IMG/VR virus record: IMGVR_UViG_3300036546_000172
Span: 64,001-128,000 of that record
Origin: a virus
Lineage: Duplodnaviria; Caudoviricetes
DNA: 64,000 nucleotides
Reading direction: 5' to 3' (one strand)
In this document: positions 15,795 to 59,326 of the stretch, piece after piece
Layout: the number at the start of each line of letters is the position of its first letter
Position numbering within the stretch: position 1 is the first letter of the stretch
Position numbers and translations under genes: made by a program
Notes under the pieces: generated by a model
Told to the model about the DNA's origin: nothing
Databases searched by the model: none
The model's input: the letters and a program-made list of their open reading frames with translations, nothing else

Positions 15795-17051
15795 ATGGAT
15801 TCTTATAGACAAGCTCTTCAGTACTGCCGAGATGGTTTGTTAAAAATGACAGACGATGGCGAGGGTCATCGTCTGTTCTGCTACACCAAGTCTTGCTTTT
15901 TTGGTAAAGATACATGGGACGATGTCACTAAGACTCATCGCGGCAAGCTGTACTATGAGAACAAGCCCGTTAATCACCCATTCACTAAGATCTTTAACGT
16001 AGATGAAGTTACAGAGACTGAGCATAACCTCATCTACAATCGCATGCAGAATGAACCATACGAGATCCTAGATAAGGCTAATGGACATTTGTTCATAGTA
16101 TCGATGTTCCAGGACTCCAAAGGTGAGCAGCACGTGGTATTCTCTACCAAGGGCTCAATGCCGAACCCCGAGAACGATCTACTGAATGATGACATTCGTA
16201 TATTCGCTCACAAATACTCAGAACAACTGGATAAGCTGTGTTTTGTGATGCCTAATGTTACATTGATGTTTGAGGCTATCGTCGCTCATGATAAGCACTC
16301 AATGTATGATCTGCAGGTCGAGCAGTATGGATCTGAAAACGACTTTGTTCTGCTCGGTGCTGCAATCAACCTAGGACGCGAGCACATCGACCTCGGTAAC
16401 GAAGATGAGTTAAAGAACATCCAGCATTCAGAGCACAATACAACTACACTGGCTGACTATCCGTGGGTAGAAAGTGATTGGCACCAATTGTTGAAGCTAT
16501 CACATTTCATCGGTTGTCCTGTTGTCCATTGCTACGATTTCATTGAAGGCTCACCTGAGACCTGGAAAGAGCATACTGATCGTGAAGGTTATGTGATTCG
16601 TTTCCTGACAGATAACGCAAGAGTTAAGATCAAGACTACTGAATATTGGAAGAATCGATTCAAAAAAGATCTGACACCTGAGGTATTATTATCTACGTTC
16701 GCTAAAGGCGGAGCTGCATTGATGCAGGAGAAGATCGCTAACAAATGCATTGCTAAAATCGAAAGTTATTTCATCTCATGGTACATGGATGATCTGATTC
16801 GATGGAAATCTGAAGTGCTGCCATACCTGAAACAGAAGAACAATCAATTGTCATCTAAAGATCGCAAATGGCTGTTCACTGAATCCTACTTCTGCAGTTT
16901 CCAGCGTCAATACATTGCAGCGATAGTAGATGGTAAGAATCTGGATATCACACAGAACAAAACTCTGCGTCAGATGTTCGTAGATGATGTAGCTCTTGAG
17001 CGTGCAGATATCAAACAATCGCTTGAACAGATTGTAGTGAATGCTCTATAA
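15795..17051 (+). CDS. RNA ligase, Rnl1-like
   Basis: PFTKIFNVDE, DKANG (motif I), STKGS, MFE and EGYV...VKIK. Confidence 0.8.
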   Translation: MDSYRQALQYCRDGLLKMTDDGEGHRLFCYTKSCFFGKDTWDDVTKTHRGKLYYENKPVNHPFTKIFNVDEVTETEHNLIYNRMQNEPYEILDKANGHLFIVSMFQDSKGEQHVVFSTKGSMPNPENDLLNDDIRIFAHKYSEQLDKLCFVMPNVTLMFEAIVAHDKHSMYDLQVEQYGSENDFVLLGAAINLGREHIDLGNEDELKNIQHSEHNTTTLADYPWVESDWHQLLKLSHFIGCPVVHCYDFIEGSPETWKEHTDREGYVIRFLTDNARVKIKTTEYWKNRFKKDLTPEVLLSTFAKGGAALMQEKIANKCIAKIESYFISWYMDDLIRWKSEVLPYLKQKNNQLSSKDRKWLFTESYFCSFQRQYIAAIVDGKNLDITQNKTLRQMFVDDVALERADIKQSLEQIVVNAL

Positions 17052-26162: not shown

Positions 26163-26198
26163 AACAACTCCCGATAGCTCAGCTGGATAGAGCAACAG

Positions 26199-26322
26199 AG
26201 ACAACAAAGCCTCGCGCTAGCTCAATTGGATAGAGCACCTCCCTTCTTTTGTGCATTCGTGTAGTGTACAAAAGAAGGAGGTGGTTACTGGTTCGACTCC
26301 AGTGCGCGAGGCTTTGTTGTCT
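26199..26322 (+). ncRNA. tRNA-Arg(TCT)-like RNA with a 27-nt anticodon insertion, an extended acceptor stem and no CCA
   Basis: Intact D and T arms; cttct-[27 nt]-aa; agacaacaaagcctcgcgc/gcgcgaggctttgttgtct stem. Confidence 0.7.
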
Positions 26323-26377
26323 TTAAAAATACAAAATATGATTCCCACTCGGGAATCCAATATAAGATAGGTGACAT

Positions 26378-26656
26378 ATGAATTCACATTTGAGTTTACT
26401 CGGATGCCGAGCAAGAGATAAAGTAACAGGTATCGAAGGTGTGGTAACTACTGTATCATTTGATTTGTACGGTTGCATTCAAGCAGTACTGACTCAGAAG
26501 GCAGATGAGAAAGGTGAGTATAAGATGTCACCGTGGTTTGATGTTACACGCCTTGACATCGTTGACCATAACCCGGTTATGACACAGCCGAACTTTGAAC
26601 TGGGATATGTTGCAGAAGGTAAGAAGGGAGCTGCAGAAAAACCTCAGCCTATGTGA
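26378..26656 (+). CDS. conserved phage hypothetical protein
   Basis: ARDKVTGIEGVV...DLYGC...WFDVTRL. Confidence 0.7.
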   Translation: MNSHLSLLGCRARDKVTGIEGVVTTVSFDLYGCIQAVLTQKADEKGEYKMSPWFDVTRLDIVDHNPVMTQPNFELGYVAEGKKGAAEKPQPM

Positions 26657-26703
26657 TGTTAAATCGACAGTTAGATAAATAGAAAGGTATAAACAAGGAA
26701 CCA

Positions 26704-26811
26704 ATGATGAACACTCAAAACACCATCGATGCGTCCAATATGCATCCCGGATATAGTAATTCGATGGCTCTCTGTGGCTATAAGCCAGGATACAGAGAAC
26801 GAGGGTTTTGA
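26704..26811 (+). CDS. 35-aa leader peptide (MMNTQNTIDASNMHPGYSNSMALCGYKPGYRERGF)
   Basis: AAGGAA RBS; the stop codon lies inside the antiterminator 5' arm. Confidence 0.7.
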   Translation: MMNTQNTIDASNMHPGYSNSMALCGYKPGYRERGF

Positions 26812-26864
26812 GCTGATATTGCAGTCATAGTTCATCAAACCCTCCAGTTGGAGGGTTTCTTTTT
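26801..26864 (+). promoter_or_regulatory. mutually exclusive antiterminator/terminator (transcription attenuator)
   Basis: gagggttt-tgagct-gat pairs with gtc-agttca-aaaccctc; the alternative is aaaccctcc/ggagggttt followed by cttttt. Confidence 0.75.
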
Positions 26865-26892
26865 ATACTCGGATAAGGTACAATGAGTTTTC

Positions 26893-26978
26893 GGGTAAGC
26901 GGTGAAGTTGGAGAGTCACACCAGATTGTAACCCTGGCGCCATGTGCTGAGTAGGTCCGAATCCTACCTTACCCACCA
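26893..26978 (+). tRNA. tRNA-Tyr(GTA), slightly atypical
   Basis: GGGTAAG/CTTACCC acceptor, long variable arm, CCA; T-loop TCCGAAT and an A-C mismatch in the anticodon stem. Confidence 0.8.
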
Positions 26979-27051
26979 ATAACAGTTGCACAACATCACA
27001 GGACATCATATAATATTTGTAAGTTAAGATGACCTAGAGAAGGAATCAGAG

Positions 27052-27537
27052 ATGAACGCAACTACCTATATCATGAGCAAGCTGGATGAAGTTTTCGCGC
27101 CAATGGATGCAAAAGTACTGGAAGCTTCAAAGAAGTGGGGCGTTGAGCGTTTTGAGGCGATCAAAGAGCTGAGAGCTTCAGGAGAACTGAACGGTTTGAA
27201 CTCAGCTGAGAAATATGATCGTCTCTACGCGGTAGCTGGTGGTAAGACTTGGTACAATATCTTCAACGGTCGTAATGCTAAAATGATCGAAGAGATCATG
27301 GAAAAGAATTGCAAGATGACCGCTGAGAAGCGGAATGCTAAGATTGCAAGTAAGTTGGAGAAGGCTGGCGTTACAGAGGTGCTCAGCTCTGACTTCAGCG
27401 ACACACACGATGGATTCAACGGCTACTTCGGCGTCGAAACCAACAAAGGTAAGAAGACAGTAGAAGTAGAAACAATTTATGCAGGTGGATACAACATTCA
27501 ATGCCTGCATCTGAGAGTACTGGTGAGGGTCAAATGA
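27052..27537 (+). CDS. conserved phage hypothetical protein inserted in the tRNA array
   Basis: TIYAGGYNIQCLHLRVLV C-terminus; own promoter (ttgcac...tataat) and terminator. Confidence 0.75.
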   Translation: MNATTYIMSKLDEVFAPMDAKVLEASKKWGVERFEAIKELRASGELNGLNSAEKYDRLYAVAGGKTWYNIFNGRNAKMIEEIMEKNCKMTAEKRNAKIASKLEKAGVTEVLSSDFSDTHDGFNGYFGVETNKGKKTVEVETIYAGGYNIQCLHLRVLVRVK

Positions 27538-27546
27538 CCCTCCTTT

Positions 27547-27623
27547 CGGAGCTTAGCTCAGCTTGGTAGAGCATCCGGTTTGGGACCGGAAGGTCGAAGG
27601 TTCAAGTCCTTCAGCTCCGACCA
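27547..27623 (+). tRNA. tRNA-Pro(TGG)
   Basis: Canonical cloverleaf with CCA. Confidence 0.95.
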
Positions 27624-27630
27624 TTTTTAT

Positions 27631-27718
27631 TCCCAGGTAGACAAACTGGTAAAGTCGCCGGACTGTTAATCCGGTTTCCGAAAGGATATTGTAGGTTCGA
27701 AGCCTACCCTGGGAGCCA
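27631..27718 (+). tRNA. tRNA-Asn(GTT) with a long variable arm
   Basis: TCCCAGG/CCTGGGA acceptor, CTGTTAA loop, tcc-gaaa-gga variable hairpin, G73 then CCA. Confidence 0.88.
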
Positions 27719-27724
27719 GACAAC

Positions 27725-27813
27725 AGAGAGTGATTCCAGCTGGTGCTGGAGACCGCCTGCTAAGCGGTTCGCCTGATTCATCGGGTGTGGTTCAATTCCA
27801 CCGCTCTCTGCCA
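27725..27813 (+). tRNA. tRNA-Ser(GCT)
   Basis: CTGCTAA loop, long variable arm, GCCA end. Confidence 0.88.
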
Positions 27814-27814
27814 T

Positions 27815-27913
27815 GGAGAGGTAAGCCGAAAGATCCGGGGTAGCGGCAACGGTCGTGAAAACCGAGGGTTTACGAAAGTAGACGTCAGGGTTCGAATCCC
27901 TGTCTCTCCGCCA
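27815..27913 (+). tRNA. tRNA-Ser(TGA)
   Basis: GGAGAGG/TCTCTCC acceptor, long variable arm, GCCA end; loop CGTGAAA has G33. Confidence 0.82.
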
Positions 27914-27919
27914 TATTGT

Positions 27920-27998
27920 GGTGAAGGTGGCCGATATTGGTTAAGGCGCAAGGTTGTGACCCTTGTATATGCGAGTTCGATTCTCGTCCTTCACACCA
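27920..27998 (+). tRNA. tRNA-His(GTG)
   Basis: G-1 present, TTGTGAC loop, CCA. Confidence 0.9.
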
Positions 27999-28003
27999 CT
28001 TAT

Positions 28004-28081
28004 AGGGGCGTAGCTCAGCGGTTTAGCAGCAACCGGCTTTTAACCGGTAGGTCGTGAGTTCGAATCTCACCGCCCCTACCA
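28004..28081 (+). tRNA. tRNA-Lys(TTT)
   Basis: CTTTTAA loop, CCA. Confidence 0.92.
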
Positions 28082-28082
28082 T

Positions 28083-28156
28083 GACGAGTTGGCCGAATGA
28101 CCAGGCGACGAGCTGCAACCTCGTTCATGTGAGTTTGAATCTCACACTCGTCTCCA
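28083..28156 (+). tRNA. tRNA-Cys(GCA)
   Basis: CTGCAAC loop, U73 then CCA. Confidence 0.9.
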
Positions 28157-28294
28157 ACATTGATGGTCTTTCGAAATGAATAGTAGTTATCACATATAAA
28201 TGACGCTACAATGTATTTCGAAAGTTAAGAACACCGCCGGACTGGCCCATCCGGGTACTGGTAGGGATTGAAGTTCCTAGGGCCACGCTCTTTA

Positions 28295-28679
28295 ACAAAC
28301 ATCATTGAGGTAGTCTCTAGGTGAGTTAACGGCCATTGACTCATTGAGGATTGGCGGAATAAAGTCGGAGGTCTTGGGCTTAACGCACGTTCAAAGAGGT
28401 GGTTCTCGGTCATCTATCAAATGGTAGATGACGCAGTCTGAAAAGGCTTGAACGGTTCCTTGCATACACTACAGGCTACAGACCCTACTCTGTTAAGCAT
28501 GTCAACAGTTCTCTCACCCTCATGCATGACTTGAAGATATTCTTCATAGTCGATGTCTGGCAACAGATGAGACAACAGATGACCAATCTAAGTCAGTCAG
28601 AGTCAACAAAGAGAGATGCAGGGGTGTTGGTAATAAGCTAGTCCAGCATTCTCACAGAGACTACCTCAATGATGTTTGT
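28295..28679 (+). ncRNA. unknown large structured RNA closed by a perfect 24-bp stem
   Basis: acaaacatcattgaggtagtctct / agagactacctcaatgatgtttgt, many nested helices, no credible ORF; strand inferred from the tRNA operon. Confidence 0.7.
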
Positions 28680-28684
28680 ATTAG

Positions 28685-28762
28685 TGCAGGGTGGACTGGA
28701 GATGGTTCCAGCTCGGTCTCATAAGCCGAATGACGGGGGTTCGAATCCCTCCCCTGCTTCCA
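28685..28762 (+). tRNA. tRNA-Met(CAT), initiator-like
   Basis: 1:72 mismatch, TCGGT/GCCGA anticodon stem, CCA. Confidence 0.88.
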
Positions 28763-28840
28763 TATAATCGAAAACCTGGTGCGGTGTGATGATACATCTA
28801 CTACAGGGTACCGAGGATGGTAGTTCACTCGGATCTTTTA

Positions 28841-28916
28841 GCCCGGTTAGCACAATTGGGAGTGCAATCGCCTTGTAAGCGATAGGTTGTAGGTTCGAGT
28901 CCTACACTGGGCACCA
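28841..28916 (+). tRNA. tRNA-Thr(TGT)
   Basis: Canonical cloverleaf with CCA. Confidence 0.93.
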
Positions 28917-36559: not shown

Positions 36560-37225
36560 ATGTCTAAAAACAATCCGCTGCTAGGTAGTGAAGTGAATAA
36601 ACACCTGCGTAAACTGGGTATTCAGACTCCTATGACTGATCGCGTTATGGAAGATCGTGATGTTAAGGTTGAGAAGATCACTCACCTCATGGCAGAAGTG
36701 CTTGAAGTTCTGGGACTGGATCTCACAGATGATTCATTAGAAGAAACACCTCTACGGGTCGCTAAGATGTATGTAGATGAGGTCTTCAGTGGTCTGACTG
36801 ATGAGGCTTTCCCCAAATGCACAACGGTAGAAAATAAGTTTTCGTCCGGTGATGAGTTTGTACAAGAAAAGAATATAACGTTATATTCAGACTGCGAGCA
36901 TCACCTGCGTCCAATATACGGGGTAGCTCATGTGGCGTATTGTCCGGCAGATAAGGTACTGGGTCTGAGTAAGATGAATCGGATCGTACAGTATTTCGCC
37001 CGACGTCCGCAGGTTCAGGAGCGTCTGACTCATCAGATTGCTGCTGCTATTTCATACATTACTGGCTCTGAAGATGTGATTGTGGCTGTTGATGCCAGAC
37101 ACATGTGTGTATCTCAGCGTGGTGTATCTGACACTAACAGCTCTACACAAACTATCGCAGCTCTTGGTCGATTCGGTAAGCAAGATTCCCACCTACGCAG
37201 TGAGTTCATAAACTCCATCCAATAA
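36560..37225 (+). CDS. folE: GTP cyclohydrolase I
   Basis: ETPLRVAKMY, CEHH, GLSK, RPQVQERLT and HMC. Confidence 0.96.
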   Translation: MSKNNPLLGSEVNKHLRKLGIQTPMTDRVMEDRDVKVEKITHLMAEVLEVLGLDLTDDSLEETPLRVAKMYVDEVFSGLTDEAFPKCTTVENKFSSGDEFVQEKNITLYSDCEHHLRPIYGVAHVAYCPADKVLGLSKMNRIVQYFARRPQVQERLTHQIAAAISYITGSEDVIVAVDARHMCVSQRGVSDTNSSTQTIAALGRFGKQDSHLRSEFINSIQ

Positions 37226-58228: not shown

Positions 58229-59326
58229 ATGCGTAAACTAGTAACTATCCGAGAAGTTAAAGAAGTTCGACCAATTGAAAAGGCTGATGCTATTGAGTGC
58301 ATTAGTGTTGATGGATGGACCGTTGTTTCAAAGAAGGGTGAATTTCAACCTGGAGACAAATGTGTCTTCTTTGAAATTGACTCCTTTCTCCCTGCCGATG
58401 ACGAAAGATATGCTTTTCTCATTAAGGGTGGTGTGAAGAAAGATCCATCCGGAAAAGAAAGGATTCGACTGAAAACAGTTAAACTACGAGGTCAGTTGTC
58501 TCAAGGTTTGGCACTACCAATTAAGCTATTCCCCGAGTTGAAATATTTTCTTCAAGGTGAAGATGTTTCTAGTGCTCTTAATGTAATCAAATATGAAAGG
58601 CCAGAACCAAAAACGGCAAATGCCGCTGGTCATTTCCCTGACTTTATTAAGAAAACCGATGAAGAACGTATTCAAAATGTCTATGATGACTTCAAAGAGT
58701 TGTATAAGAATACAGACTACTACGCAACAATGAAATTGGATGGGTCTTCATGTACTGTGGCATTTTTGAACCAAAATATGTCATGGCACTGGAGAAATGA
58801 ACCCGAATATGAAGTCATCAAAGATTCTAATAAGATCGGGGAATTCAAAGTTTGCTCACGGAATCTTGAATTGAAACCCGACCCAGAGTCTCACTTCTAC
58901 AAAGCAGTATTGTCTGGTGGTATTGTAGACAAGGCTCGTCTGATTTCAAAAGAACTTGGGTGTTCGGTTGCTATCCAAGGTGAAGTGATGGGGCCAGGTA
59001 TTCAAGGTAACAAAGATAAGTTTAATGACTATCAGTTTTTTGCATTCAATATCTTCAACATTGACAAGCAAGAATACTTACCGTATGCATTTGTTTTGGA
59101 ACTTTTCAATTACTTTGGGGTTCAACAAGTACCACTGATCACACAAAATAAAATTAAACCATTTACTTTGTTTGGTACTCTTGGTAGTATGTTGGACTAT
59201 GCGGATGGTTACAGTATCAATTCAGATTGCCGAGAGGGTATTGTAATGAAGCCTGCATGTGGAGCATCTGGAGAAAGTTTCAAAATTGTTTCAAACAGAT
59301 TTTTGATGAAAGGTGGTGATGAATGA
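58229..59326 (+). CDS. RNA ligase (DRB0094/Rnl2-like family)
   Basis: FEIDSFLP, KTDEERIQN, KLDGSS, QGEVMGPGIQ, EGIV and FKIVSN. Confidence 0.9.
   Translation: MRKLVTIREVKEVRPIEKADAIECISVDGWTVVSKKGEFQPGDKCVFFEIDSFLPADDERYAFLIKGGVKKDPSGKERIRLKTVKLRGQLSQGLALPIKLFPELKYFLQGEDVSSALNVIKYERPEPKTANAAGHFPDFIKKTDEERIQNVYDDFKELYKNTDYYATMKLDGSSCTVAFLNQNMSWHWRNEPEYEVIKDSNKIGEFKVCSRNLELKPDPESHFYKAVLSGGIVDKARLISKELGCSVAIQGEVMGPGIQGNKDKFNDYQFFAFNIFNIDKQEYLPYAFVLELFNYFGVQQVPLITQNKIKPFTLFGTLGSMLDYADGYSINSDCREGIVMKPACGASGESFKIVSNRFLMKGGDE

Follow-up and report, generated by a model that had tools for sequence, protein, structure and literature searches.

A putative leader-peptide transcription attenuator ahead of phage tRNA genes

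The locus and its elements

The window analyzed here is a 64,000-nt stretch of phage DNA. It spans bases 64001-128000 of an IMG/VR virus record that is 137,942 bp long and carries direct terminal repeats. We label its genome G000; G001, G006, and G007 are the IMG/VR contigs compared with it. The window genome carries T4-type genes for replication and structure (Dda helicase, gp46-like nuclease, DNA polymerase, gp41-like helicase, rIIA, sheath, portal, and major head protein). Its nearest cultured relative, Pseudomonas phage pf16, is distant (helicase 56% identity). Within the tRNA region of this genome, downstream of tRNA-Met (20873) and tRNA-Leu (26079), lies a compact cassette made up of a late-promoter motif, a Shine-Dalgarno (SD) site, a short leader ORF, and an intrinsic terminator (Table 1). 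The tRNA genes 3′ of the leader follow in the order Tyr, Pro, Asn, Ser(GCU), an odd long-arm tRNA-like gene, His, Lys, Cys, Met, and Thr. The tRNA-Ser (anticodon GCU, 27724-27810) was missed by ARAGORN and detected by Rfam (59.8 bits, tRNA-Sec model). With it included, all nine tRNA species that an earlier note on this DNA had placed downstream are present, and all nine are represented in the leader. A second long-arm tRNA-like gene missed by ARAGORN (27816-27908, 27 bits) shares 89% identity with a stretch of G001 that carries no annotation (L002:1461-1560).

The 161-aa gene interposed after tRNA-Tyr had been credited with a promoter and a terminator of its own. A promoter-like site does precede it, but the supposed terminator is a hairpin without a proper T run and went unreported by the terminator scan. 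At the loci examined in other phages, homologues of this gene do not stand beside tRNA genes. Two further features of the region are recorded here. A gene-free gap in the tRNA array (28157-28684) contains a weak Rfam manA match at window 28321-28491 (33 bits, gathering 55, E 1e-5), and window ~26197-26341 is the most structured 141-nt window among those sampled genome-wide (z −9.7).

Table 1. Positions of the cassette elements and neighboring genes in the window, and of the leader ORFs in Salicola phage SCTP-2
Feature	Position	Strand	Remarks
Late-promoter motif GATAAATA (NATAAATA type)	26674..26681	+	30 nt 5′ of first ATG
Shine-Dalgarno AAGGAA	26695..26700	+	3 nt before ATG 26704, 6 nt before ATG 26707
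Leader ORF	26704..26811	+	35 codons + TGA
Region 1, putative anti-antiterminator	26705..26727	+	Start codons and codons 2-8; in the MFE fold of untranslated RNA, pairs with region 2 and 26830-37
Region 2, antiterminator 5′ strand	26801..26817	+	Last three sense codons, TGA, and 6 nt beyond
Region 3, antiterminator 3′ strand	26824..26844	+	Final 8 nt are the terminator 5′ arm
Intrinsic terminator	26837..26864	+	9-bp stem, AGTT loop, CTTTTT tail; hairpin 26837-26858
tRNA-Tyr (GTA), proposed first regulated gene	26893..26978	+	Starts 29 nt after terminator
Promoter-like site (26987-27014) and 161-aa gene (27052-27537)	26987..27537	+	Between tRNA-Tyr and tRNA-Pro
tRNA-Pro, Asn, Ser(GCU), long-arm tRNA-like, His, Lys, Cys, Met, Thr	27547..28916	+	May share the read-through unit
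SCTP-2 cassette A leader	L108:2833-2967		Annotated hypothetical protein gp335
SCTP-2 cassette B leader	L110:1360-1473		
SCTP-2 cassette C leader	L111:1332-1463		
SCTP-2 cassette D leader	L120:11297-11383		Record 316197-316283

A T4-type late promoter ahead of the leader is credible and is backed genome-wide by the spacing of the motif to late genes. In distant T4-like phages, NATAAATA has been published as the late promoter (PMC2984593). In the window genome, TATAAATA occurs six times, always in intergenic DNA and always on the + strand, and five of the six copies lie 39-49 nt upstream of an ORF start. Structural genes stand behind five copies (tail tube, baseplate wedge, a 1643-aa ORF with structural-type PHROG hits, sheath, and portal); the sixth, at window 36420, is 140 nt upstream of a GTP cyclohydrolase gene. 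The scaffold and major head genes are preceded by AATAAATA, and G/CATAAATA is found 28-30 nt upstream of four ATGs, that at 26704 among them. Sigma-70-type promoters, considered as an alternative, showed no enrichment in the window genome (31 vs 24).

The late motif, the AAGGAA site, and the 35-codon ORF described in the earlier note were all found in their places when the sequence was read; the public gene call starts at the second ATG (26707) and yields 34 aa. SD-like motifs accompany 52% of gene starts in the window genome vs 9% of all ATGs, which favors a real start for the leader ORF. No other small intergenic ORF of the genome combines an SD with a late motif. Its codon usage lies between that of real genes and that of spurious ORFs (coding likelihood ratio 0.41). 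A phmmer search of the leader peptide against 1.84 billion representative proteins returned only itself, and the ORF occurs on one other contig only, where it is 100% identical. A run of one regulatory codon is absent from the leader, and an RNA polymerase pause site was likewise not identified.

The antiterminator and the terminator are mutually exclusive structures. Here GAGGGTTT (26801-08) is exactly complementary to AAACCCTC (26837-44), the arm on which the terminator hairpin also depends. Folded locally, regions 2 and 3 form a 17-pair helix of −16.6 to −17.7 kcal/mol, in agreement with the ~17-bp antiterminator that had been drawn over the leader stop. The terminator that had been proposed to share its arm was detected by the terminator scan, folds at −13.8 kcal/mol, and belongs to a set of just 11 strong terminators genome-wide (138 kb); tRNA-Tyr begins at 26893, the 29-nt distance that the earlier note gave. 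Among 2000 dinucleotide shuffles of the upstream 60 nt, three produced an 8-nt Watson-Crick match as long as that of the antiterminator, seven an equal energy gain, and 54 an equal energy. The antiterminator is within the best 0.2-3% of shuffles, and the window element is fourth of 101 terminator-like hairpins. For the 177-nt unit as a whole, the folding energy is −57.5 kcal/mol (z −4.7 to −4.9); z ≤ −3.2 is reached by 3-4% of random 141-nt windows of the window genome. All of these values belong on a multiple-testing scale of ~250,000 windows read, at which such coincidences are expected by chance. The case from the window sequence alone is only suggestive, weak to moderate. Rfam leader, T-box, and riboswitch families gave no match to 26673-26892 at E up to 1, nor did Rfam match the G001 cassette region described below at E up to 0.1.

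Cassettes of like build in other phages

Megablast and blastn against phages found no related DNA. IMG/VR searches by exact 17-mer, by a pattern fixed to the window's arm sequences, and by a 25-mer from tRNA-Tyr recovered no relative of the element either. No relative of the cassette emerged from blastn against the loci around homologues of the neighboring 92-aa and 161-aa genes, and tblastn of three leader peptides against phages found no relative either. Similarity searches missed the other cassettes because these are too diverged; they were found through the tRNA array of G001, the nearest relative, and a degenerate arm pattern. In IMG/VR, the degenerate three-arm pattern matched 61 loci; a tRNA follows within 30 nt at just three of them. 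Each of these tRNA-adjacent loci, in G001, G006 (L066), and G007 (L088), has a 38- to 41-codon ORF that ends at the arm. Blastn with the G006 cassette reached Salicola phage SCTP-2 (MF360958.1), a cultured 440-kb phage from a solar saltern that carries four cassettes (L108, L110, L111, and L120; record 296.4-317.7 kb). This makes eight cassettes of like build in five phages: the window phage, G001, G006, G007, and, four times, SCTP-2. Seven were measured in full, SCTP-2 cassette D being outside the seven. G006 and G007 are 87% identical in the cassette and are counted as one witness.

The G001 cassette (locus L002) illustrates the shared plan. Its 38-codon ORF (L002:181-297) is followed by a terminator (329-356) and, 27 nt on, by a tRNA-Gly that heads a 19-tRNA array. 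The last codons of the leader, AAG GGC TTC, include AAGGGCTT, the exact complement of the terminator 5′ arm AAGCCCTT. More generally, a leader ORF with an ATG is present in all eight cassettes (28-44 codons), and an intrinsic terminator lies between leader and tRNA in every one. The NATAAATA motif is found 30-60 nt before the AUG in five of the six cassettes having upstream sequence; cassette D, which is not among these six, also carries TATAAATA. The SD is weak in G001, and SCTP-2 cassette A has AAGGAA with a 6-nt spacer, the same as the window. Across the seven measured cassettes, the duplex between the antiterminator arm and the terminator 5′ arm is 8-10 bp long (−11.7 to −14.5 kcal/mol); the terminator hairpin (−13.8 to −16.6 kcal/mol) starts 25-40 nt past the stop codon; and the tRNA begins 18-34 nt after the hairpin. 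Cassette D has the same arm at its stop codon and a tRNA-Leu soon after its terminator.

The position of the arm relative to the stop codon is nearly constant. Counted from the start of the stop codon, the end of the arm falls at −2 to +3 nt in each of the seven cassettes measured, in differing frames, so that the overlap of stop codon and antiterminator pointed out in the earlier note is kept in the homologues. The 17 nt around the stop codon are identical at 16 of 17 positions between the window and SCTP-2 cassette A and are read in a different frame. The C-terminal residues vary among cassettes, and the four SCTP-2 leaders are unrelated in sequence. The conserved element is the RNA and not the peptide.

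The arms also co-vary. Changes in the shared 5′ arm are matched by Watson-Crick changes in its antiterminator partner: position −1 goes from A-U to G-C (G001 and SCTP-2 cassette D), and position +4 from C-G to U-A. Cassette D also has a changed terminator 3′ arm. The pair table behind these comparisons was built by hand around the CCC core, as MAFFT alignments put the arms out of register, and few positions are able to show co-variation because the arms are well conserved. The short ORFs that the earlier note proposed to look for ahead of tRNA arrays in related phages are thus there, with last codons that pair with the terminator 5′ arm and arms that co-vary.

Folding showed unusual stability in each of the seven units measured (z −3.5 to −5.5). 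In five of the seven, the minimum free energy (MFE) structure has the terminator formed and the AUG region paired to the end of the ORF or to nucleotides immediately ahead of the terminator. In three of these (the window, G006, and SCTP-2 cassette B), the partner of the start region is the antiterminator arm itself. The MFE structure of SCTP-2 cassettes A and C is the antiterminator form. When the start region is masked, as it would be by a ribosome, and the terminator 3′ arm is not yet transcribed, the antiterminator folds in all seven. The earlier note had supposed that an absent ribosome, like a stalled one, would allow read-through. The predicted folds speak against this part of its scheme in the window and in five of seven cassettes overall, where the untranslated RNA folds to the terminator form.

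The genomes that carry these cassettes are distant: G000 and G001 have 26 of 162 ORFs in common, at ~36% identity. Since the genomes are otherwise so distant, the cassette travels with tRNA genes. Two neighbors of the cassette were compared separately. The 92-aa gene at window 26378-26656 has 78% aa identity between G000 and G001 (L002), and tRNA-His (27921-27998) has 96.5% nt identity between the same two. Likeness at both places is far above that of the rest of both genomes (~36% aa). Either the G000 and G001 phages exchanged the tRNA region, or it came from a host they had in common. Upstream of the G001 cassette, a ~600-nt stretch without a clear gene (within L036:4950-5700, minus strand) has two T-arm-like hairpins; Rfam gave no match in L036:4950-5700.

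Leader composition and the tRNA blocks behind it

The four cassettes of SCTP-2 allow leaders to be compared with several tRNA blocks in one genome. Leader A contains 12 Asn, 4 Asp, 3 His, 5 Met, and 6 Ile, and the tRNAs behind it are Asp, His, Met, and Ile. Leader B contains 9 Thr, 4 Ser, and 5 Glu, ahead of tRNAs for Ser, Glu, and Thr; leader C contains 6 Lys, 5 Phe, and 1 Trp, ahead of tRNAs for Lys, Phe, and Trp. Leader D, of 28 codons, has 4 Gln, 4 Leu, 3 Tyr, and 2 Pro, and behind it are tRNAs for Leu, Pro, Leu, Tyr, and Gln. In the 4×4 table of leaders against blocks, the diagonal holds 17, 18, 12, and 13 own-set residues for A-D, and off-diagonal cells hold 0-8. Enrichment for the own block is seen in each leader (binomial P of 0.005 for A, 2e-5 for B, 0.013 for C, and 3e-4 for D). 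Among the 24 possible assignments of leaders to blocks, the true one is the best, at 1.66 vs 1.12 for the next. The match between leader and block in SCTP-2 is shown by the sequences.

Elsewhere the match is less marked. The G007 leader matches its tRNA set with P 0.024; by residue fraction, neither G001 nor G006 reaches significance. Of the 18 tRNA species downstream of it, the G001 leader represents 17 (P 0.035); when it is compared with the first tRNA block alone, the result is not significant. For the window leader, the downstream tRNA set holds 20 of the 34 residues after Met1 (P 0.013) and all nine species are covered (P 0.025). A recount returned the earlier figure of 21 of 35 codons for the nine named amino acids, against a background of 38.6% (P 0.008, a post hoc test). 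At the codon level, 17 of 35 match vs 31% background, with P 0.02, or 0.056 without both start ATGs. In the window leader alone, the codon match is modest. A Tyr-only sensor was considered and set aside (3 Tyr in 35 codons, P 0.2).

A proposed ribosome-mediated switch and its alternatives

Taken by itself, the window first favored a small late gene or a small RNA; it is the comparison across cassettes that leads to the attenuator reading. We consider it likely, on the comparative sequence evidence, that the cassette is a trp-type, ribosome-mediated (leader-peptide) transcription attenuator of phage tRNA genes. The trp/his-type geometry and the response to slow translation that the earlier note proposed gain support from the homologous cassettes, their co-varying arms, and the composition of the SCTP-2 leaders.

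In this attenuator, the late promoter would give rise to a ~175-nt transcript bearing the 35-codon leader ORF. With no ribosome loaded, region 1 would pair with region 2, the terminator (regions 3 and 4) would form, and transcription would stop 29 nt before tRNA-Tyr. A ribosome that reaches the stop codon fast would cover region 2, again leaving the terminator to form. A ribosome slow on the leader codons would occupy region 1 and leave region 2 free to pair with region 3. Once this antiterminator had formed, RNA polymerase would continue into tRNA-Tyr and perhaps into tRNAs further on. Because the leader codons sample the amino acids of the downstream tRNAs, the circuit would amount to negative feedback, with transcription of the tRNA genes occurring when those tRNAs limit decoding. 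The phage would thus probably make its tRNAs only when ribosomes run slowly. We infer the translation of the leader, the relative timing of ribosome and polymerase on which such kinetics depend, and the physiological trigger. Since the folds follow the 1:2, 2:3, 3:4 scheme, untranslated RNA is expected to terminate, and termination without translation would match the superattenuation of trp.

The earlier note had the element gating the tRNA array. In the window, the predicted dependence on read-through would be certain for tRNA-Tyr only. tRNA-Met and tRNA-Leu lie upstream of the cassette, and the promoter-like site at 26987-27014 and the 161-aa gene come after tRNA-Tyr.

A first alternative is that the terminator/antiterminator switch is real but is set by a protein, by a tRNA bound as in a T-box, by a small molecule, or by temperature, the ORF being incidental or secondary. 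The alternative helices and their co-variation need no ribosome by themselves, and the weak SD of G001 and the ambiguous codon usage of the leader would sit comfortably with such a switch. Yet an ORF of 28-44 codons with an ATG is present in eight of eight cassettes. Despite shifts of frame, no more than 3 nt separate the stop codon from the arm in any of the seven measured cassettes, and in cassette D the stop codon comes just past the arm. A ligand sensor would have no need for a leader whose composition tracks the tRNA block, as it does in SCTP-2, and the searches of Rfam families found neither a T-box nor a riboswitch match. We regard this explanation as unlikely.

It is more improbable still that the cassette is an ordinary small late gene for a 34- to 35-aa protein with its own promoter and terminator, its arm pairing and tRNA neighbor being incidental. 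Promoter, SD, ORF, and terminator do make a complete unit, the ORF was called by a gene caller, and the window and G001 peptides can be weakly aligned (shuffle P 0.014). However, the peptides are unconserved: the SCTP-2 leaders are unrelated to one another, the nucleotides at the stop codon are read in different frames, and no homologue was found among the 1.84 billion representative proteins. A small late gene would also leave the arm complementarity, the co-variation, and the constant link to tRNA genes unexplained.

A structured non-coding RNA, small RNA, or tRNA-cluster processing element with its own terminator, in which the ORF is a chance frame, is equally improbable: the units are very strongly structured, their 5′ end pairs with the 3′ end just ahead of the terminator as in many small RNAs, and the tRNA cluster of the window genome has other structured non-coding stretches, but ~3-4% of random 141-nt windows of that genome reach a similar z, a ground-state structure does not account for a conserved, co-varying helix that excludes the terminator, and the kept ORFs and codon match are left unexplained. 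The terminated leader of the proposed attenuator could in addition act as an RNA, like rnTrpL, a terminated leader that acts in this way (PMC6614838).

It is useful to set the proposed attenuator beside known systems. Like the enterobacterial attenuators (trpL, hisL, leuL, thrL, ilvL, and pheL), the phage cassettes join a promoter to a short leader and to a 1:2 pairing, a 3:4 terminator, and a 2:3 antiterminator. In both, the stop codon is sited so that a terminating ribosome would cover segment 2, and leader codons are tied to the regulated product, the multivalent thr and ilv leaders sampling several amino acids just like the phage leaders. By comparison, the enterobacterial attenuators control enzymes, whereas the phage cassettes would control tRNA genes, and the proposed signal is the rate of decoding over a panel of many codons, not a run of a single codon. 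The phage leaders are also longer (28-44 codons), stand behind a T4-type late promoter, and have no sequence relation to the enterobacterial ones. The pheST operon, which encodes phenylalanyl-tRNA synthetase, has an attenuator with a Phe-rich leader. It resembles the phage cassettes in using leader-peptide attenuation to control a gene of the translation apparatus, with feedback on the supply of charged tRNA; it differs in that it controls a synthetase, answers to a single amino acid, and is chromosomal. T-box riboswitches likewise choose between terminator and antiterminator before genes of tRNA metabolism and answer to tRNA status. They bind uncharged tRNA directly, through a specifier loop and the T-box sequence and without a leader ORF, whereas in the phage cassette the ribosome is the proposed sensor.

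The reasons for tRNA genes in phages, and the control of these genes, have been a matter of debate for decades. Our full-text literature searches returned no description of leader-peptide control of phage tRNA genes, and no published account of the regulation of phage tRNA expression was found in the literature searched. If the attenuator reading is true, the phage monitors how fast a chosen panel of codons is decoded and produces the corresponding tRNAs when they are needed, and a textbook mechanism is extended to a new class of target gene. SCTP-2 makes this reading directly testable: phage and host are in culture, and each of its four cassettes has its own codon panel. The design of the cassette could also serve synthetic biology as a compact sensor of charged-tRNA pools.

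The trigger of the proposed attenuator may lie in the conflict between phage and host. Recent work describes the rescue of infection by phage tRNAs from tRNA-cutting defences (PMC10264068, PMC11464382, PMC11555353). Given such work on phage tRNAs and defence, a link between anticodon nucleases and the attenuator is plausible. Host shut-off, starvation, or an anticodon nuclease would remove host tRNAs and slow ribosomes on the leader, and the phage would then turn on exactly the tRNA block that decodes those codons. That the codon-panel attenuator is an inducible answer to tRNA loss, at once a counter-defence sensor and a housekeeping feedback, is a tentative proposal, which we regard as possible but doubtful.

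Finally, two observations concern tRNA metabolism in these phages. NAY codons (Asn, Asp, His, and Tyr), which are read by queuosine-family tRNAs, make up 9 of 35 codons in the window leader (26704-26811) and 19 of 44 in SCTP-2 leader A; the window has a GTP cyclohydrolase gene at 36560-37225. Two RNA ligase genes are also found in the window (15795-17051 and 58229-59326): one resembles Rnl1, and the other matches PHROG 968. In combination with the tRNA genes, these RNA ligases suggest a capacity for tRNA repair.
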